Below are positions 25,746-35,162 of a stretch of DNA of 64,000 nt, one piece after another. Both the position numbers and the translations under genes were made by a program. Source of the stretch: a virus; the IMG/VR virus record IMGVR_UViG_3300043411_000952, positions 1-64,000 of that record. The stretch is one strand, 5' to 3'. Numbering within the stretch: the first letter of the stretch is position 1; the number at the start of each line of letters is the position of its first letter. The notes below the pieces were generated by a model, which was not told where the DNA came from, ran no database searches, and saw nothing but the letters and a program-made list of their open reading frames with translations.

Positions 25746-27011
25746 ATGAGCACACAAAACACACACACCACATATACTATTGGACAAATTAATCACCGCG
25801 TTCGCAGCGGCGGCATTTATTGGAAACAGTGCCTGATCGTAGCAGACAGTGCGTGGTATTTAGTATCCGAGGCTAAACTAGGCGACGCCCTACATCCTAA
25901 GTGGTTAATTTCTAATACTAATTTAGCTAAGCTTCTTCGCGTTAGCGCAAATAATTTGGCTAGTTACTATCAAGCTGTGATGTCTGTACCGTCGCATGCT
26001 ATTTATCATGATGACGCTCCTGTGCATTTCGTTCTTGATGACGGCAAACCTATTAGACGCACGCGTCAGTTGATGTGGACTCTATCGGGTGTGAAGTTTA
26101 TTATCAACTTATCCGGTATACGCATCGATGCTGCAATTAAATCTAGTATTCGCGCCTGGATTTTGGCGCAATCTTCTGTTTACGGTGTTGAGTTGTCGCC
26201 TTCCTTCGCGACGCGCGCAGACCCCGTTACTGTTACTAAAGTTAAAGATTTAAGTATTACATGTGTAGCGGATGCGGTGCAAAATATCACAGCGTCTGTC
26301 CGTTACGTCGCGGGTATTGTAGACCAGCTTTGTCTGGAGGTTAATAGACGCAAAGAACTGGAGGAGGAGATGGCGACTCTACGTAAACAGGTTATGGCGT
26401 TAACCGGTAATTTACCTGGGCTACCAAGCAAGTTACCAAATAAAATTGATGCCGCACGAAAAGCGGACAAACCTGCTGTGCAGTTCACACAAGCCCCCAA
26501 GGCTGATAGAGGTAAGGCTATGGTATTCGCTATTGGTAACAATGGAAGTGAAAATGAAAGCCTGCACCAGTATATTGCTAGAAGAGGAAATAAGCATCAT
26601 AGAGCAGAAAATCTTACTCGTATAGGTTTGCTGAACAGTGATCAACTGTATTCTCTGTTTGCGGACTCATGGATTGACCCTGCTACTAATAAACTTATCA
26701 AAAAAGATAAGTTCCAGGAGCTGCTTCGTCGTACGTTCCATGTGGCGCATTCCAGCCACCGTACACCAATACTCAAGTCTGAAATGATTAGAGCTAATAT
26801 GGCTGTTGTGTGTCAGGTGCTTTGCAAGAAGAAGCCTAATCCTACAGACGATAATGGAAACCAACTTGAGCTCGATAATCCGGCTTATGTTTCCAGCGCA
26901 GAGCCTTGTGTTCGATTCCAGACGCGTTATACAGCGAAAGCTATTGACTACTTGAAGGACAAATGGCATATGATCCTGGGACAATCCAGTGGACAAAAAA
27001 TTAAATCTTAA
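25746..27011 (+). CDS. Antirepressor-like DNA-binding protein
   Basis: MWTLSGV motif, central coiled coil, C-terminal QTRYTAKAIDYL similar to KilAC/ANT. Confidence 0.5.
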   Translation: MSTQNTHTTYTIGQINHRVRSGGIYWKQCLIVADSAWYLVSEAKLGDALHPKWLISNTNLAKLLRVSANNLASYYQAVMSVPSHAIYHDDAPVHFVLDDGKPIRRTRQLMWTLSGVKFIINLSGIRIDAAIKSSIRAWILAQSSVYGVELSPSFATRADPVTVTKVKDLSITCVADAVQNITASVRYVAGIVDQLCLEVNRRKELEEEMATLRKQVMALTGNLPGLPSKLPNKIDAARKADKPAVQFTQAPKADRGKAMVFAIGNNGSENESLHQYIARRGNKHHRAENLTRIGLLNSDQLYSLFADSWIDPATNKLIKKDKFQELLRRTFHVAHSSHRTPILKSEMIRANMAVVCQVLCKKKPNPTDDNGNQLELDNPAYVSSAEPCVRFQTRYTAKAIDYLKDKWHMILGQSSGQKIKS

Positions 27012-27210
27012 GCTTACAACCAGGCTGGCTCATCTTGAGAAATTAAAAGATGAGCCAGTCATGGAAGATTTTGATGCTGGGCTTCGCGCCGCGCGTTACG
27101 ACGAGTATGTATTTATAAAAGAGGTATTGAAAGTATATGGAGAATCAAACGAAGGACAAGGTAGTACCTGTTCCAGACTACACTCTCCCGCCGTTACAGT
27201 ATCTCGATAA
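26989..27210 (+). CDS. Small hypothetical protein
   Basis: GTG-start ORF filling the gap before the polymerase gene. Confidence 0.4.
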   Translation: MDKKLNLKLTTRLAHLEKLKDEPVMEDFDAGLRAARYDEYVFIKEVLKVYGESNEGQGSTCSRLHSPAVTVSR

Positions 27211-30200
27211 GACAGGGACTGTTCGCGGGCATAATGGTGTTACATTTGTTTCTGGGGAAGGCATAAAGCCAGCCGATATAATGTTTATTACTTCCTGCGT
27301 ATCCCCGCAGGAGGCTAGTAAATTTCTTAAAGGCAGAGACGGAGGGCAGGGCGTCCGGGTGCAGCCTCGTTATCTGAGGTCAGACGCCGGTGTTATGTTC
27401 TCTGATATTTTTAATCAGGAGGGTATCGATCTTTATAAGTGCTACTACACAGCGCTGGTCAAATGGTTGCTGCCCAAGAATGAACGCATTAAGATACCGA
27501 AAGATGTAGTGGCTTGGGCGCTTCCCTCACTAGAAGAAGAGATAGCTCTCGTAAGCCCTAAGATCATTGTATGTATCGGCAAACCTGTCTTTGATCTTCT
27601 AGCAAATATAAAGCTGTCTTTGAGTGACGCCAAAAGCGGTTGGTTTTATAGCGAGAAGTACAACGCTAAAATATATCTCCTCGATGATACATATAAGCTT
27701 GTCTCTAACCCGGAGTACATTGGAAAGTTCCAGGTAGAAGCTAGAGAAATTAATAGGATGTATAAGGAGATATGTAATGTATCCACCGGACGCATTCCTT
27801 TAGAGTATGAGACAATTACTAATTCCTCTGATCTTAAAAGAGTAGTTAGCAATTGGAAACAGAATAATTTTGATGTAATTAGTGTGGACTGTGAGTGGTC
27901 TGGTAACAACCATATAGACGGTAAATTACGCAGCACGCAATTTTGCTGGGCCCCCGGTAAGGCATGTTATGTCCGCTGGATGGATGACAAGGGTAATTAC
28001 ACCTTTGATATTTCGTATAAAGAAGCAGGCGCTATACTTTCAGAGTGGTTAGATTTAGAAGATGTAAAATACATCGGGCATCACTTTGCTGCTGACGCCC
28101 CATGGTTGCATCATGTACTAGGACTTAATTGGTATGAGAAGTGTATTTTCGATACCGAGTTTGCGCAACAAACTGCTAATGAGGCCGAGGACCTTTCCTT
28201 AGAGCGAATAGCCCTGAAGTACACGGATTTAGGAAGGTATGACCTAGATCTTGTGTTGTGGGTTAAACAGAACAAGGCATTAATGGTGGATGGTGGCTAC
28301 GGCGCTATTCCGGATGAGATTCTTATACCTTATGCGTGTTTACGCCAAGAAAGTTTAGTACAGCTAGGCGATGGATCTTGGTGTAAAATTAAAGATCTAG
28401 TTAACAGTAAATATGCAGGAGAAGTTAAGGCTGTATTAAATGGTAAAGTACAGAATTGCAAAGTTACTAACTGGTACAAAGTCAATACCAGACAAAAAGT
28501 GTGGAAGAGGTTAGTAACTAAATATGCACAGAGAGGAAAGCATGGTTACTTAGGTCCGGTATTAACCCCTGATCATAAGGTAATAACGCAGAGAGGTAAG
28601 GTAGCAGTGCAGGATATTATACCTGGAAAGGATAGTATTTGTACGTCTTACAATACTTTTACGTCTACACAATTATCTGTATTTTTAGGTTGTCTACTAG
28701 GCGATGGCGGCATCGCGAGGAGAAACAAAGCGCACGCTGGTTTAGTTATGAGCCAGTGTGAAAAACGCGCTGATTATTTGAAGTGGAAAGTTAATGTACT
28801 TTTTGGTGACCCTGAAAATGTAGAATCAAAAGGTTCTTTATGCGCTTATAGATCCAAGTACACTCCATACATTGCCGCGTTATCGGATACATGGGAGAGA
28901 AAAGAGGCCTTGGCGCATAGTAAAAGAAAATTATTAATTACTGAAAATTTACTAGACCATCTTCAAGCGCCGGGAATAGCTGTCTGGTATCAAGATGATG
29001 GTAACCTAACTTGCGGTAACGAGGTACGTATTACTATTTACCATTTACAAGAGCAGGAGCTTGCCGCCTTACGTTCTTGGTTTAGAAGCAATATGGGTGT
29101 GTATGTTAAATATAGAAAAAATCAGAATCATATATGCTTTTCAGTTAAAGATTCTGTTGTTTTTTTAAATTATATTAAAGATTATATACATAATGATTGC
29201 GGATATAAAACCAATGTTCCGTATAATTTGAAGGTCAACGCGCATATACCAGGTCCTTTGTACTTTGAACCTATTGTTGGTATTAGTGACGTACCGGTCA
29301 AACCTTGTAGCGGTGATGGTATTCGTTACTGCTTAGCTGTAGATAAAGCGGAGAACTTCTTAACTAAGTCTGGTTTTGTTTCTAACTGCAAAGACGTAGA
29401 TACTGTCTTTAGAGCATGGCCAATTATTCAGCGGAGTCTGCAGGCTCAAGATCTTCTAGACTATTATAATAATATATTTCATCCGTTTGTTACGGATGTA
29501 TTTGTGAGTTTCGCCTTGGTTGGCCTTCCTATGGATGTAGCCATGATGGACGAGCTTAGAGTTTTATACACGTTTGCTAGAGACAAAATGGAAGTTATCC
29601 TGCGTGAGGAGATTCATGTAGAGGCTAAGAACTTTGTTTTAATGGCATTTGCAACTAGGTTACCTCCTGAGCTTGCTACTGAAAAATATTTAGAGTTCAT
29701 TTCTTTAATAGCTAATTCAGAGCATATGGAGGCCTGGGCGGTGCTTAAAGGATCCGCTAAAAAGCCTGATGATGTACCTAAACTTAAACATATATTCGAC
29801 CACTTTATTGACAGCGCGCATTTCAATATTAGATCTTCAACACAGTTAAAACGCTGGTTATTTAATGTTAAGTGTTACGAGCCTGTAAAGTCGACTGGTA
29901 ATAAGGAGAAAGGGCTACCTGCAACATCATGGGAAAAGATTAAGTCCATGCCGCCAGAGGCCCAGAAGAATTATAATCCTGCTGTTGATAAACAAACGCT
30001 GCAGATTTTATCTGAACAGAATAATGACGCGCTGCTTCGTAGGTTATTACAATTGAACGCTGTAGGTAATATATGTAAAGCTTTCCTTAAAGAGGCCGAC
30101 ATAGATGCTGACGGTAACGTTGTAAAAGAGAACGGGCTACATTTTTACCTATGCAGCGATAATCGTGTGCATGGGCAAATGAGTACCACAGAAACCGGAA

Positions 30201-33200
30201 GACCCCGGTGCGTCCACGGTGACACTTTAATACGTTGTTTTGATGGTTTTAAACGTATAAGAGATATTAAAATTGGTGACCTTGTCTGGACACATTTAAA
30301 CAGATGGAGAAAAGTAGAGGATACATATATTAAGCCAGCGGCCCCCATGTATAAGGTAAGTTTTGAAAATGGGGAAGTACTGTTATGTACTGAGGAACAT
30401 TTACTATTGACCGAAGCTGGAAAGTGGATATCTGTTAGAGATGTCTGTTTGCAAAAAGCATTTAAACAATCCGGAACTGAGGAAGAAAGTTGTTTCTCTT
30501 TACCGAGAGTCCTTGAGCACCGCCGAGCAAGTAGCGGAGATTTTGAATATAACTCCGCATACTACTTATCGAATACTTCGTCTAGAGTTAGGCGAGGAAG
30601 AATTCAAAAAGCTCAAAGCGATAAAATACTCGAGCTCAAAGCTGGGAGAGAAGAATCCTTGGAAAGGGAAGAGGGGGGAAGAGGCCGCGACCTGGAAGGG
30701 GGATTGCGACGATGGTTACGGTTATTTAACACGCCTAATAGATGGCCAACGTTACTTCGTACATCGTATAGTCATGGCAGAGGCGCTGGGTATACATCCC
30801 TCGCAGTTGCCGGATCATCTAGCTGTGCATCATATAGATCAGGATCGGAAAAACAACGCACTAGACAACTTAGCGCTCTGCACCACATCCGGGCACAGAG
30901 GTATCCACGAAAGATACAAACATACCGATCAGGAATTAAAATTAAAGGGGTTGTCCCTTGCGGAAGCTATCCAGTATATGACATCTCCGTAGAGGAGGAT
31001 CATTCCTACGAGGCGTCCGGTTGTTTTTCGCACAATTCTTGGAAACCAAACTCGTTGAATTGGCCTAGCTATGTTAACTCCATGATTTCTAATGGTATAG
31101 CTGGTCTTTTTGGTAAACTAAAAGAACGCGGAGAATTACCAGAAGAGTTTGAGAAGTTTATTATTAAAAATGATAAGGGGGAATACAAGAGTGAGGTACC
31201 TTCTATACGCAGTTGCGTTAAAGCTCCTGAAGGTTGGTGCTTTGTAGAGTCCGATTATCAGACTGCGGAAATTAGAGGACTAGCCTTTGTATCAGGGGAT
31301 AAAAACCTAATTGATATTGTTTGTAACCCCGATTTAAATTTTGCGGTTACTAAAGATGATAAAAAAGTTCGGCTGGCTTTTCCTCCTGAAGTGTTTCCTC
31401 CTTCCACACAGGAAGAGTATAAACACCTCCTTATTTCCCCGGATGATCCATCCTTAATAAGAAAAGATGACGGTTCTTTGAAACATCCTAAACAGGACCT
31501 ACATTGGTCTTTGGCTGAGATGGTTCATATTAAACCTAGAGAAGTACTTGACGAAAAGAAAGACCGTGGTGCTGCTAAGGTAGGTAACTTCAGCTGCGTT
31601 AATAAATATACAAAAATACGTACAGAAAAAGGTGTTCTAAGCATAGAAGACGCGATAATTTATGGTTGTACTTATGTATGGGATGGTTTAGATATGGTGT
31701 CTTATGATTCCATACAATACCAAGGAAATAGATTCACAATTAATTACCAAGGACTGTCCGCAACCCCAGACCATGTTGTCTGGCTCTCAAGTGGAGAAAA
31801 GTGTTGTTTCGGAGAAGCTGCCTTGCGAGGTCTCAGTATTAAATCGTATAGCGGCTTTGAATTGGATACGGCTGGTAGCAGACACAAGAACAATAGAACG
31901 CGCAAGAAAAGGCATCATATTTATGGTGCGGTGTCAAAGGTGTCAGAAAACAACGCGCAGGTGGTTACACAACGTGGAGGCGGGCAAAGGTCTAAAATGT
32001 CGATGCCTGTCTCCTTTGCGATACAACGACCCACGCGCGCGCACACTAGGCGCAAGGTATCAAGCTATGCGTCAAAGGTGTTTTCTAGACAGCCATGTCA
32101 GCAGCTACAATTACAAGGGGCGAGGCATAAAACTAATATTCAAAAGTCGCAGAGAATTTATTTTATGGGCGCTTCAAAGATGGCCGGATACAGACTTCAA
32201 AGGTTTGGATTTCGACAGAATAAACAACGATGGCCACTACTCGAAGGGCAACCTACGTTTGGTCACAAGGCAAGAAAATTTAAGAAATACGAGAGCTTCT
32301 CGCTGGTCCTACCGCGTACGCGCCGAGAAGTTATTAAAAGACAACCCAGGTGTGAGTGTCTCTATGAAAACGTTATGGGGCATGCTGCAAATGGGGTATT
32401 CGGAAGAAGAAATACTTCTAAGGATAAAGTCTGGAGAAATAAAGAGCCGGAAGGCAATATTAGCAAATGCGAAAGTATTGCAAGCCAGGAATTTAATAAG
32501 ATTAAATCCGGGCTTGGTTGTAGGAGAGAAACATATAATGAGTCTATATCGGAAAGGATTAACCGATCAGGATATAATAGAACATGTGGCGAAGCACGAA
32601 GAGTTAACTTTGCGTATTCGTCAGGCGAAGCAGCGCAGAGAAAACTCTTTGCAGCGATCGGCTCGTATAGGTATAGGCTTCGCGGCCAGTACTACAAGAA
32701 AGATGATACGAGAAGGTCTATCCGACGAGCAATTGCTGGCGGCGTGGGAAAAATCGTATGTAAAGTCAGAATCAATCAGGCAGAAGATAGAGAGGCTTGG
32801 CTTGAAGCTCAGCGTATCTACTACGCACAGGTTGATGAAGCAGGGCATGTCGGACGCGCAGTTAGAAGAATATTCGAAGAAAAGGGTTTTAAGCTCACAA
32901 AAGAGCCAGTATACGATATAATAAACGCAGGACCAAGGCATAGATTTGTTGCCAGTGGCTTGCTTATATCTAATTCGGCATACGGCGCGTCCGCCTCAAC
33001 CCTGGAACGCAAAATTGAACAGGATACAGGTAAGAAGCCAGAAGAAGGTACAGGTCAGCGGTTATTGAAGGCGCTTGAAAAACGTCAGCCAGTAGCACAA
33101 GACTTTTTAATTAAAATGGAACGTGTACCAGAGAAGCCCGGATATTACCGCGCAGCATCTGGAAGAATTCGTCATTTCGCTTCCCATGATCCAAAATACC

Positions 33201-33580
33201 TGGATGACATTGACGAGCATTTGACTATGGGCTTGTTTAAGTCTATGGGTAGAGAAGCTCGCAATTTCCCGATGCAGGAGAGTGTAGCTGCCACCGCTGC
33301 GCGAGCAGGTAAATGGCTGCTAGATGCTTACATCAAGTTAAATATGCAGGCTAGACCATTGATTATTTTATATGATTCCGTTGTTACTCTTTGTCCACTT
33401 GAAGAACGATTTAAGGTTGCGCAATTGCACCAGCTCTTTATGACGGATGAGAACACATGGGAGTACCATGGAAGAAAAATGTCGTACCCTATCGACAGCG
33501 ACTTCGTATATCGTTGGTCGGCTAAACCTGATAAAGATGATAAAAAATTGCTAGAAGATAAAACTTACAAAACCAACTGA
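27137..33580 (+). CDS. polA: Family A DNA polymerase with UDG-like N-terminus, 3'-5' exonuclease and 3 inteins (~1061 aa after splicing)
   Basis: ExoI VDCE, ExoIII YA|CKD, TETGR, motif A SDYQTAEIR, motif B R.AAK.GNFS|SAYG, NFPMQ, motif C LYDS. Confidence 0.93.
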   Translation: MENQTKDKVVPVPDYTLPPLQYLDKTGTVRGHNGVTFVSGEGIKPADIMFITSCVSPQEASKFLKGRDGGQGVRVQPRYLRSDAGVMFSDIFNQEGIDLYKCYYTALVKWLLPKNERIKIPKDVVAWALPSLEEEIALVSPKIIVCIGKPVFDLLANIKLSLSDAKSGWFYSEKYNAKIYLLDDTYKLVSNPEYIGKFQVEAREINRMYKEICNVSTGRIPLEYETITNSSDLKRVVSNWKQNNFDVISVDCEWSGNNHIDGKLRSTQFCWAPGKACYVRWMDDKGNYTFDISYKEAGAILSEWLDLEDVKYIGHHFAADAPWLHHVLGLNWYEKCIFDTEFAQQTANEAEDLSLERIALKYTDLGRYDLDLVLWVKQNKALMVDGGYGAIPDEILIPYACLRQESLVQLGDGSWCKIKDLVNSKYAGEVKAVLNGKVQNCKVTNWYKVNTRQKVWKRLVTKYAQRGKHGYLGPVLTPDHKVITQRGKVAVQDIIPGKDSICTSYNTFTSTQLSVFLGCLLGDGGIARRNKAHAGLVMSQCEKRADYLKWKVNVLFGDPENVESKGSLCAYRSKYTPYIAALSDTWERKEALAHSKRKLLITENLLDHLQAPGIAVWYQDDGNLTCGNEVRITIYHLQEQELAALRSWFRSNMGVYVKYRKNQNHICFSVKDSVVFLNYIKDYIHNDCGYKTNVPYNLKVNAHIPGPLYFEPIVGISDVPVKPCSGDGIRYCLAVDKAENFLTKSGFVSNCKDVDTVFRAWPIIQRSLQAQDLLDYYNNIFHPFVTDVFVSFALVGLPMDVAMMDELRVLYTFARDKMEVILREEIHVEAKNFVLMAFATRLPPELATEKYLEFISLIANSEHMEAWAVLKGSAKKPDDVPKLKHIFDHFIDSAHFNIRSSTQLKRWLFNVKCYEPVKSTGNKEKGLPATSWEKIKSMPPEAQKNYNPAVDKQTLQILSEQNNDALLRRLLQLNAVGNICKAFLKEADIDADGNVVKENGLHFYLCSDNRVHGQMSTTETGRPRCVHGDTLIRCFDGFKRIRDIKIGDLVWTHLNRWRKVEDTYIKPAAPMYKVSFENGEVLLCTEEHLLLTEAGKWISVRDVCLQKAFKQSGTEEESCFSLPRVLEHRRASSGDFEYNSAYYLSNTSSRVRRGRIQKAQSDKILELKAGREESLEREEGGRGRDLEGGLRRWLRLFNTPNRWPTLLRTSYSHGRGAGYTSLAVAGSSSCASYRSGSEKQRTRQLSALHHIRAQRYPRKIQTYRSGIKIKGVVPCGSYPVYDISVEEDHSYEASGCFSHNSWKPNSLNWPSYVNSMISNGIAGLFGKLKERGELPEEFEKFIIKNDKGEYKSEVPSIRSCVKAPEGWCFVESDYQTAEIRGLAFVSGDKNLIDIVCNPDLNFAVTKDDKKVRLAFPPEVFPPSTQEEYKHLLISPDDPSLIRKDDGSLKHPKQDLHWSLAEMVHIKPREVLDEKKDRGAAKVGNFSCVNKYTKIRTEKGVLSIEDAIIYGCTYVWDGLDMVSYDSIQYQGNRFTINYQGLSATPDHVVWLSSGEKCCFGEAALRGLSIKSYSGFELDTAGSRHKNNRTRKKRHHIYGAVSKVSENNAQVVTQRGGGQRSKMSMPVSFAIQRPTRAHTRRKVSSYASKVFSRQPCQQLQLQGARHKTNIQKSQRIYFMGASKMAGYRLQRFGFRQNKQRWPLLEGQPTFGHKARKFKKYESFSLVLPRTRREVIKRQPRCECLYENVMGHAANGVFGRRNTSKDKVWRNKEPEGNISKCESIASQEFNKIKSGLGCRRETYNESISERINRSGYNRTCGEARRVNFAYSSGEAAQRKLFAAIGSYRYRLRGQYYKKDDTRRSIRRAIAGGVGKIVCKVRINQAEDREAWLEAQRIYYAQVDEAGHVGRAVRRIFEEKGFKLTKEPVYDIINAGPRHRFVASGLLISNSAYGASASTLERKIEQDTGKKPEEGTGQRLLKALEKRQPVAQDFLIKMERVPEKPGYYRAASGRIRHFASHDPKYLDDIDEHLTMGLFKSMGREARNFPMQESVAATAARAGKWLLDAYIKLNMQARPLIILYDSVVTLCPLEERFKVAQLHQLFMTDENTWEYHGRKMSYPIDSDFVYRWSAKPDKDDKKLLEDKTYKTN
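28337..29386 (+). mobile_element. Pol intein 1 (350 aa, LAGLIDADG)
   Basis: CLRQES...LTPDH...GCLLGDG...WYQDDG...FVSN|C. Confidence 0.92.
30209..31036 (+). mobile_element. Pol intein 2 (276 aa) with out-of-frame HNH gene
   Basis: CVHGDT...CTEEH...VYDISV....SY.....SHN|S. Confidence 0.9.
30441..30992 (+). CDS. HNH endonuclease in the +1 frame inside Pol intein 2
   Basis: HTH-like N-terminus, GEKNPW/WKG motif, HRIVM, VHHIDQDRKNNALDNL.L....H...H. Confidence 0.85.
   Translation: MSVCKKHLNNPELRKKVVSLYRESLSTAEQVAEILNITPHTTYRILRLELGEEEFKKLKAIKYSSSKLGEKNPWKGKRGEEAATWKGDCDDGYGYLTRLIDGQRYFVHRIVMAEALGIHPSQLPDHLAVHHIDQDRKNNALDNLALCTTSGHRGIHERYKHTDQELKLKGLSLAEAIQYMTSP
31595..32974 (+). mobile_element. 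Pol intein 3 (460 aa) with out-of-frame HNH gene
   Basis: CVNKYT...ATPDH...VYDIINAGPRHRF.....ISN|S. Confidence 0.9.
31704..32921 (+). CDS. HNH endonuclease in the +1 frame inside Pol intein 3 (true start may be later)
   Basis: CQRC...CRC, YQAMRQRC......YNYKGRGI, DRINNDGHYSKGNLRLVT..EN.RN, repeated C-terminal helical units. Confidence 0.85.
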   Translation: MIPYNTKEIDSQLITKDCPQPQTMLSGSQVEKSVVSEKLPCEVSVLNRIAALNWIRLVADTRTIERARKGIIFMVRCQRCQKTTRRWLHNVEAGKGLKCRCLSPLRYNDPRARTLGARYQAMRQRCFLDSHVSSYNYKGRGIKLIFKSRREFILWALQRWPDTDFKGLDFDRINNDGHYSKGNLRLVTRQENLRNTRASRWSYRVRAEKLLKDNPGVSVSMKTLWGMLQMGYSEEEILLRIKSGEIKSRKAILANAKVLQARNLIRLNPGLVVGEKHIMSLYRKGLTDQDIIEHVAKHEELTLRIRQAKQRRENSLQRSARIGIGFAASTTRKMIREGLSDEQLLAAWEKSYVKSESIRQKIERLGLKLSVSTTHRLMKQGMSDAQLEEYSKKRVLSSQKSQYTI

Positions 33581-33581
33581 C

Positions 33582-35162
33582 ATGTCATTCGTTCCTACTG
33601 ATTATTCTGAAATTCAAAGACAACTGAAAGCTGAAAAAGAAAACAGCTACTGGGGTGGTTATTACAAGCCAGGTATTTATGGCGGCACACCCACACAAAA
33701 GAAAATGTTCTCCGGTAGAATTTTACCGGCGTTTAATTATGCCTTATCCCAGGCTGACGCGGATTTCCAGTCTTCCTGGATGCCGTATCGTAATGCAGAT
33801 AATATCGACGCGGAAACTAATCAGCCGGTACTCAGCGCTTTCTTCGCTGTTGTGGCTGCTTACTCCTGGTTCGGTAATAAACAAGTATCGTTCCTGAGCC
33901 CTTCAACATTGCGATTCACTCACAGTATTTCGCGCGGCCCTGAGCTCATCGATCCTGTGCAGGATATTCGTAACTTCGCCAAGAAGCATGACGATCCAGC
34001 TATACGCGCTTTAACTGAACGCCCTGAAAATAAGAAAGACGCTAAAATTGTCATTCCTTATCCTCAGCGTCGTTATGTGTTTAACTTCTTTGGTACTGCA
34101 GGTACAGACCGTAATGTTAGAAATTATTTAGTCGATGTATCTCAGAAGGCCTTCGAAGACCTAGCCGGTAAGCTGTCCGAGTGGCGTCCCGCGCATGAGC
34201 AGACTATTGATCCTAACTGGCCTCATTATTTATATGGTGATATTACTGATCCGCAAAGCGGTGTTATGGTTGAGACTACCCCCATTCCCTCGACCCCACA
34301 GCCTTTCAACGGCTTTGTGTTTACATCTGGATCTCATAAGTCGCTAAAAGGTGTGCGTCAGTATCCCGTCCCTCCAGAAGCTATGACTGGACGTTATCAC
34401 CTTTATGGTGACAGCTCCGCCTTTAAAGTTATGGGCGCGCAGGAAATTATTGAGTTCCTCGTAGAGGACGGCGCAATTCCTTATCATTTGATCGAGGAGG
34501 TGTGTAGTAACTACGCACATATTCCGCCAAGCCCAAGTAGAGCCAAGGTATTTCCTGGTTCCAATTCGGAAGAAGACTTAGATTCATTCCGCCCTCCAGT
34601 GGCCAATCCGTTTGCGCAGAAACCCGCAGCCGTGCAGCAGGCCGCTCCTTATAGGCCCCCTGCACCTCCAGTGCCTGTCCAACAAGAGACCCCTCCATGG
34701 GAAACTCCAGCAACCCTTTCGCCTCCGCCGCCAGCCATGGTAGCGCCTGAAGAAAGGTTCTGGGTGTCCATGAATGGTAATACTGAAGATGAGCCTATCA
34801 CTCGGGCAGAGGTGCAAAGCCTCATCAGTACGCATACGACTAGTACGTTTATGATCTGCGGTACAGGCACAAAAAGTGTTTGGCAGACTCCTGCCGAGGC
34901 TGGATTCGTGGTACAGGCTAACAAGCCTAAACCTCCAGCCCTACCGCAGCCAGCCCCCGCTCCTTCATCACTACCTAGCATAACCGCCACACCGCCCCCA
35001 GCGGTAGTCGTGCCAGTTGCTCCGCCTTCTACCTCCATTCTCACGGATGAGGAGAAAGTGGCGTATGATGAATTAAAAGCTAAGTTTGACGCGGGCACAC
35101 TCCCAACTTCAGAGTTGATGAAGTTTGTGCAGTTCGTCAACCGTATCGAGAAGAAGGCTTAA
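33582..35162 (+). CDS. Probable ssDNA-binding protein with Pro-rich linker and GYF_2-like domain
   Basis: Located between pol and recA; FWVSMNG....P.....V..L.......ICG.G....W resembles GYF_2/DUF4339. The SSB role is positional inference. Confidence 0.45.
   Translation: MSFVPTDYSEIQRQLKAEKENSYWGGYYKPGIYGGTPTQKKMFSGRILPAFNYALSQADADFQSSWMPYRNADNIDAETNQPVLSAFFAVVAAYSWFGNKQVSFLSPSTLRFTHSISRGPELIDPVQDIRNFAKKHDDPAIRALTERPENKKDAKIVIPYPQRRYVFNFFGTAGTDRNVRNYLVDVSQKAFEDLAGKLSEWRPAHEQTIDPNWPHYLYGDITDPQSGVMVETTPIPSTPQPFNGFVFTSGSHKSLKGVRQYPVPPEAMTGRYHLYGDSSAFKVMGAQEIIEFLVEDGAIPYHLIEEVCSNYAHIPPSPSRAKVFPGSNSEEDLDSFRPPVANPFAQKPAAVQQAAPYRPPAPPVPVQQETPPWETPATLSPPPPAMVAPEERFWVSMNGNTEDEPITRAEVQSLISTHTTSTFMICGTGTKSVWQTPAEAGFVVQANKPKPPALPQPAPAPSSLPSITATPPPAVVVPVAPPSTSILTDEEKVAYDELKAKFDAGTLPTSELMKFVQFVNRIEKKA

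Follow-up and report, generated by a model that had tools for sequence, protein, structure and literature searches.

An HNH endonuclease gene nested in the +1 frame of a DNA polymerase intein from an uncultured phage

An endonuclease encoded in another frame or on the other strand of an intein was first noted by Gorbalenya in 1998 (NAR 26:1741), as cited by Phillips, DeSimone and Gogarten (bioRxiv 10.64898/2026.09.14.751524), who describe a cyanobacterial dnaX intein with an out-of-frame LAGLIDADG endonuclease in a +2 open reading frame (ORF). In actinobacteriophage inteins, the endonucleases in a separate frame or strand are endonuclease VII-like in frame 3, antisense LAGLIDADG or antisense VSR-like, and HNH endonucleases are found only in-frame (Gosselin, Arsenault and Gogarten, bioRxiv 10.1101/2025.01.02.630785). 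Here, we describe an intein of this kind in a family A DNA polymerase gene of an uncultured virus (IMG/VR record IMGVR_UViG_3300043411_000952, 74,193 bp, with a CheckV completeness estimate of 41%). The window that we analysed corresponds to positions 1-64,000 of that record. The second of the three inteins of the polymerase, intein 2, harbours an HNH gene, which we call HNH-2, in its +1 frame. This overlapping arrangement is real and is kept by selection.

As in the actinobacteriophage inteins, intein 2 has its splicing domain coded in the host frame, with the nuclease gene placed between the splicing blocks; the hosts of the former also include DNA polymerase and terminase (10.1101/2025.01.02.630785). 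The authors of that study likewise propose that such inteins arose when a free-standing endonuclease gene invaded an intein (10.1101/2025.01.02.630785). In contrast, the nuclease of intein 2 is a sense-strand HNH_3 protein with a helix-turn-helix (HTH) domain, coded in the +1 frame in an uncultured non-actinophage. With the dnaX intein (10.64898/2026.09.14.751524), intein 2 shares an overlapping ORF and the same selection pattern, a low omega in the nuclease frame and a relaxed host frame. However, the dnaX intein sits in a cellular gene and carries a LAGLIDADG endonuclease in a +2 ORF.

Further parallels are found in fractured genes, in which a free-standing endonuclease gene separates the halves of a split intein and shares 6-69 bp at its 3' end with the coding region of the downstream half (Dassa et al. 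2009, PMC2677866). There too, the endonuclease gene is in the endonuclease slot of the intein, and the HINT splicing domain of intein 2 is closest to that of gp41-1. Nevertheless, the host gene of a fractured gene is in two ORFs and requires trans-splicing (PMC2677866), whereas the host frame of intein 2 is continuous. Another parallel is the ShiLan domain of a phage methylase (Arsenault et al. 2025, PMC11855218), an insert that is stop-free in the host frame and similarly hides an out-of-frame HNH gene. That insert is devoid of a splicing domain and is thought to be retained in the protein (PMC11855218), whereas HNH-2 is flanked by complete intein blocks.

The overlapping layout also has a cultured-phage case. 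In Hamiltonella phage APSE-1 (NC_000935, L164, 28827-31808), RefSeq annotates an HNH coding sequence, P46, inside the polymerase coding sequence P45 on the same strand. P46 is in the +1 frame within an intein of P45 (C609 ... HN913/C; aa 609-913) and ends over block F (EVYDL). Unlike HNH-2, it is of the type found in intein 3 of the window (HNH-3, see below) and does not belong to the HNH-2 family, and both the polymerase and the insertion site differ. Thus, the kind of arrangement is already described, in the 1998 report as cited above, in the preprints of the Gogarten laboratory of 2025-2026 and in the APSE-1 annotation. Intein 2 fits the inteins with separate-frame endonucleases, with a nuclease ORF between the blocks, an uninterrupted host frame and the corresponding selection pattern, and HNH-2 falls outside the nuclease types published for them (endonuclease VII-like, LAGLIDADG and VSR-like). 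The novelty lies in the HNH nuclease type, in the PolA site and in the relationship of HNH-2 to HNH genes borne by introns at this polymerase motif.

Intein 2 spans positions 30209-31036 on the + strand and comprises 276 residues (aa 1025-1300 of the polymerase). It interrupts the PolA motif TGRxx/SxxPN in frame: the window reads TGRPR/.../SWKPN, and the intein-less polymerases of phages PS3 and BV72 are contiguous there (TGRLSSSNPNL). The N-terminus of the intein is CVHGDT, starting with C1; block B (CTEEH) is found at 30386, block F (VYDISV) at 30974 (VYDISVEEDHSY), and the C-terminus is SHN followed by Ser (SHN/S, 31034-31039). Class 1 inteins have an N-terminal Cys or Ser, a TxxH motif in block B and a C-terminal His-Asn pair followed by Cys, Ser or Thr; C1025, CTEEH and SHN/S of intein 2 correspond to these features (Cys1 ... 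His-Asn/Ser+1). In an alignment of 24 homologous inteins (alignment A2), C1, T28, H29, H64, D258, H275 and N276 are invariant, and the signature VYDxxVExDxSY...HN of the C-terminal half of the HINT domain is kept. The splicing blocks of intein 2 are intact. A blastn search of cultured phages with intein 2 yielded zero matches.

Among solved structures, the HINT domain of intein 2 is closest in sequence to the gp41-1 intein (6qaz; phmmer, E = 2e-7). This match and the AlphaFold2 prediction of beta-rich halves, with a predicted local distance difference test score (pLDDT) of 88-98, support a HINT fold. The N-terminal splicing half (30209-30472, + strand; intein aa 1-88) includes blocks A and B, is conserved in alignment A2 and is predicted to be beta-rich with pLDDT values of 94-98. 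The C-terminal half (30929-31036, + strand; intein aa 241-276) contains blocks F and G, with pLDDT values of 88-97. The host-frame filler between them (30479-30922, + strand; intein aa 91-238) is stop-free and rich in Arg, Ser and Gly, which together make up 38% of its residues vs 16% in the exteins. It is predicted to be disordered, with pLDDT values <50 and no secondary structure in the AlphaFold2 model built with the 24 homologues.

The HNH-2 gene (30441-30992, + strand) codes for 183 residues in the +1 frame of intein 2 and has its own ATG and TAG codons, the latter (30990-30992) being formed within the block F codons ATC TCC GTA GAG. Its product matches Pfam HNH_3 (PF13392) with an E-value of 3.9e-10 and 39.7 bits, for a curated cut-off of 24.8. 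The Pfam search also detected an N-terminal HTH domain, and many PHROG HNH families match as well. Residues H130, H131, N139, N143, H152 and H156 are invariant across the HNH-2 family (alignment A1). The AlphaFold2 model has a mean pLDDT of 87.9 and shows a helical N-domain and a beta-beta-alpha core. By analogy, HNH-2 is probably a homing endonuclease of the HNH_3/I-HmuI type, with putative cleavage or nicking activity. The limits of intein 2, its blocks B and F, the stop-free filler rich in Arg, Ser and Gly and the complete 183-residue gene running from ATG 30441 to a TAG within block F had all been called in an initial annotation of the window, and each was found in place.

A stop appears in the host frame wherever an HNH codon ending with T precedes a codon starting with AA, AG or GA. 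In HNH-2, NNT codons are found before 0 of 54 such codons vs 44 of 128 elsewhere (Fisher p = 1.9e-8), and the depletion is equally complete in all seven further +1 copies tested, those of intein 3 and of six viral contigs (L002-L007). Synonymous resampling of HNH-2 with the phage's own codon usage gave a mean of 18.3 expected host-frame stops vs 0 observed, and zero stops was never reached in 20,000 trials (P(0) < 5e-5). When the codons of HNH-2 itself were permuted, 10.7 host-frame stops were obtained, and in control genes of the window the equivalent frame has 9-16 stops for every 100 codons. The stop-free host frame over HNH-2 is thus far beyond chance.

We analysed selection on both frames with 30 non-redundant nested copies. 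Nucleotide diversity at positions 1, 2 and 3 of the HNH codons is 0.42, 0.34 and 0.61, respectively, and amino acid divergence is lower in the HNH frame (0.49) than in the host frame (0.75). This shows that the HNH frame is selected on its amino acids, whereas in the host frame selection acts only against stops, through which of the synonymous codons are used for HNH-2. A stretch at 30923-30992 (+ strand) departs from this pattern, both frames being constrained there. It corresponds to the last ~23 HNH codons, and the HNH tail (...AIQYMTSP and the stop) there overlies the strands of the C-terminal HINT half and block F (...PVYDISV). Over block F, i.e. in the last ten HNH codons, diversity at position 3 drops from 0.61 to 0.34, and the two frames are about equally conserved.

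We compared assemblies from public runs of other studies over positions 29900-33100, four runs in detail. Runs from 13 studies contain at least part of this region. A groundwater run and a wastewater run cover it entirely, with 12 and 91 substitutions, respectively, and 0 gaps in both, and no insertion or deletion is listed over 29900-33100 in the four runs. Seven listed variants of intein 2 were checked. The four located in the HINT parts leave the host-frame protein unchanged. Three others fall in the overlap, and two of these, at 30656 and 30887, are silent for the HNH protein and alter a host-frame residue. The initial annotation had proposed that stops were purged from the host frame and had suggested examining the depletion of NNT before AAN, AGN and GAN codons and the selection on each frame. 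Both checks agree with its proposal, the HNH frame being conserved and the host frame only kept open. It had also named a pair of compensating sequencing errors as a refutation of the overlap; these are excluded because independent assemblies are free of indels and the host frame is depleted of stops.

Other explanations of the locus can be weighed against these data. The window is a viral contig assembled from a metagenome, and a pair of mutually compensating indels, from sequencing or assembly, might have displaced from the polymerase frame an HNH domain of the usual in-frame sort. The host frame would then be non-coding over the HNH domain, with ~18 stops due where none is found; moreover, the assemblies from other studies show 0 gaps, and the same +1 relation is kept in >60 divergent loci. 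The stop count, the gap-free independent assemblies and the recurrent +1 loci refute such an artefact, and its probability is negligible. One might also imagine that the insert is a group I intron containing an HNH ORF, of the sort found in the polymerase genes of T7-like phages, and is removed as RNA, the intein-like blocks being incidental. It is true that the closest named homologues of HNH-2 occupy introns or split polymerase genes almost at this position, and there is a weak Intron_gpI match in one of these phages, Providencia phage PS3. However, the in-frame HINT blocks are complete, their fold is predicted with confidence, and selection keeps open a host frame that an intron does not need. 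An Rfam search over positions 27000-33700 of the window with E-values up to 0.1 gave no match, hence no group I catalytic RNA core was found. An intron at this position is hardly conceivable.

A different question is how HNH-2 is translated. Programmed +1 ribosomal frameshifting, rather than initiation at its own start, would yield a fusion of the nuclease to the N-extein and the N-terminal HINT half. In favour of this, ATG 30441 has no obvious ribosome-binding site ahead of it, and the +1 frame is open already from 30411, 30 nt upstream of the ATG. However, in 31 of 31 nested copies the HNH start is at a single alignment column (ATG in 24, GTG in 7), the N-terminus MS[IV]xK is conserved in the HNH-2 family, as is the C-terminus YMTSx before the stop, Shine-Dalgarno-like motifs are present 7-8 nt upstream of the start in contigs L002-L007, and free-standing and intron-borne relatives begin at the same residue as HNH-2. 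On these comparisons of start sites, frameshifting appears very unlikely, and the conserved ATG or GTG supports the proposed separate translation of HNH-2 from its own start. A promoter and terminator scan of positions 29800-33200 found sites no more numerous than in shuffled sequences, and there is therefore no evidence of an internal promoter. The +1 ORF might finally be a decaying relic in an intein that persists without homing, the nuclease being no longer made or inactive. Homing-cycle theory predicts decay after fixation, and intein 2 is present in all four phage variants compared. Nevertheless, the ORF is complete, its catalytic residues are invariant in the family, the codon-position pattern reveals purifying selection, and the exteins are less conserved than the intein and the HNH. 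We consider a relic unlikely.

The reading that we favour, with a probability of about 0.85, is that intein 2 is a working class 1 intein whose endonuclease slot is occupied by an overlapping, separately read HNH gene instead of an in-frame domain, and that the whole unit homes. Ribosomes translating the polymerase would pass straight through the slot in frame 0 and thereby add ~150 disordered filler residues between the HINT halves. The HINT domain, with its intact blocks and fold, would then excise itself together with the filler and ligate the polymerase. Read one base later from a conserved ATG or GTG, the same DNA would give the 183-residue HTH and HNH protein of the I-HmuI/HNH_3 type. 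As known homing endonucleases do, it may cut or nick, at the TGR..PNLQ motif, those polymerase alleles of co-infecting phages that lack the intein, and repair of the cut allele would copy the intein and the nuclease gene jointly.

Some observations weigh against this proposal. The top Foldseek match of the HNH-2 model is I-HmuI (1u3e), but it is weak (probability of 0.94, E = 0.045, template modelling score of 0.26), and a profile search of solved structures with alignment A1 gave no match. No intein-2-free allele of the phage was found among the four runs compared. A clear Shine-Dalgarno motif was not found before ATG 30441, which is uninformative because most genes of the phage are likewise without one. 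Judging from the starts of about 32 long ORFs in the window, most genes of this phage have A/T-rich leaders devoid of such a motif, which suggests Shine-Dalgarno-independent initiation in its host.

Relatives of HNH-2 are numerous. A collection of 5.8 billion proteins contains about 50 clusters of homologues, of ~180 residues. Members of the family are found in the +1 frame of an open long host ORF in the six viral contigs mentioned above and in 60 of 75 metagenome loci, i.e. the same HNH family is nested in +1 in at least 66 other contigs. The overlapping layout is common in uncultured phages. Nearly all the nested loci have the C-terminal junction of family A polymerases, HN followed by S/CxxPNLQNIP, and inteins of 265-282 residues. 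Identity with other loci is about 45% for the HNH and about 40% for the HINT domain, but only about 27% for the flanking exteins. Because HNH and HINT are more alike between loci than the exteins that flank them, sequence comparison indicates that intein 2 and its HNH gene form a mobile unit, distributed widely across highly diverse family A polymerases.

Among named sequences, those nearest to HNH-2 (29-35% identity) come from T7-like phages, where the HNH gene lies in a group I intron or in a split polymerase gene. In Providencia phage PS3 (MK387869), Pseudomonas phage pphageBV72 (MZ868717) and Leptolyngbya phage Dor1 (PQ195596) (L083, L084 and L085), PolA is interrupted at TGRLSSSNPNL/QNLP, ~7 codons from the intein 2 site. 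These HNH genes belong to the same family and share the target region of HNH-2, but they are carried by an intron or by a split gene, devoid of a HINT domain and of overlap with a translated host frame. The closest relative of all, with 53% identity, is free-standing and belongs to a Verrucomicrobia metagenome-assembled genome (JABDHJ010000010; L086 = L087 = L161). Like HNH-2, it starts with MSVCKKHL; it has the tail YLTS and lies behind a 188-residue PolA fragment that ends with TGRSSSR and a stop, and a polymerase exon is missing downstream. It resembles a remnant brought into a bacterial contig. A copy in Erythrobacter is also free-standing and lacks the C-terminal tail.

In a quick maximum-likelihood tree of 42 HNH proteins, intron-borne and free-standing copies are interspersed with nested ones, with four state changes. 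As this unrooted tree has few well-supported branches, no direction of switching between vehicles can be claimed. The initial annotation had envisaged that a free-standing HNH gene invaded a mini-intein. The intron-borne and free-standing relatives at the PolA motif and the proximity of the HINT domain to gp41-1 fit this idea, and the former make invasion of the intein by a polymerase-targeting HNH gene plausible, in an order of events that we infer from these comparisons.

The host polymerase gene (27137-33580, + strand) codes for 2147 residues, with frame 0 uninterrupted and zero stops over its whole length. According to the ORF list, its translation and matches to Pfam DNA_pol_A, DNA_pol_A_exo1 and UDG, the protein comprises a UDG domain, a 3'-5' exonuclease and a family A DNA polymerase, with three inteins. 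The UDG-superfamily domain is at the N-terminus (PF03167, aa 82-167; window 27137-27640), fused to the exonuclease and polymerase. Intein 1 (28337-29386, + strand; junctions CLRQESLV ... VSN/C) is canonical, with an in-frame LAGLIDADG endonuclease (LAGLIDADG_2, PF03161, aa 514-671). Hence, classical and overlapping architectures coexist within one polymerase gene.

Intein 3 (31595-32974, + strand; 460 residues, junctions CVNKYTK ... LLISN/S) is dual-coding as well. Its nuclease gene, HNH-3 (31704-32921, + strand), codes in the +1 frame for 405 residues of an HNH family different from that of HNH-2 (PHROG HNH, 1.3e-18) and ends with ...QYTI and a stop inside block F (VYDII). The host frame of intein 3 has 0 stops vs 38 expected, and NNT codons are found before AA, AG or GA in 0 of 122 cases vs 76 of 282 (p = 5e-14). 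A scan of viral contigs for exact relatives with HNH-3 alone returned nothing, but a later alignment-based scan did find relatives, and 17 of the best 25 viral ones are nested in the +1 frame. In the wastewater run X11, intein 2 is kept, and a different insert of 960 nt exactly replaces intein 3 (window 31591-32973), which is a replacement of intein alleles at one site.

Nested nuclease genes are also found in inteins of terminase large subunits. In four of them (L021, L027, L028 and L030), a different HNH is coded in frame -1 relative to a host frame that is open. This HNH is rich in paired cysteines and is probably a zinc ribbon. Another terminase intein (L029) has an in-frame HNH.

A broader reading, which we regard as tentative and rather doubtful, is that the overlapping layout represents a stable third way to carry a homing endonuclease and not a rare transition. 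A single HNH lineage acting on the TGR..PNLQ motif of PolA would then have switched repeatedly between group I introns, free-standing genes and intein-nested genes, the nested form being always in +1 and drawing its stop and C-terminal tail from the block F codons. If so, the nuclease gene and the HINT domain would have co-evolved as one overlapping unit, and expression of the nuclease might be coupled to translation of the polymerase mRNA. More generally, two long frames are kept open by selection over >500 nt in a mobile element, which provides a natural system to study overlapping genes, internal translation initiation and the tolerance of inteins to large disordered inserts. Nested nuclease genes are missed or mis-annotated by gene callers, and several can be present per essential gene. 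Finally, these loci link intein-borne and intron-borne nucleases that would attack the same polymerase motif, and this bears on the model of intein origin in which the splicing element came first and the endonuclease second.

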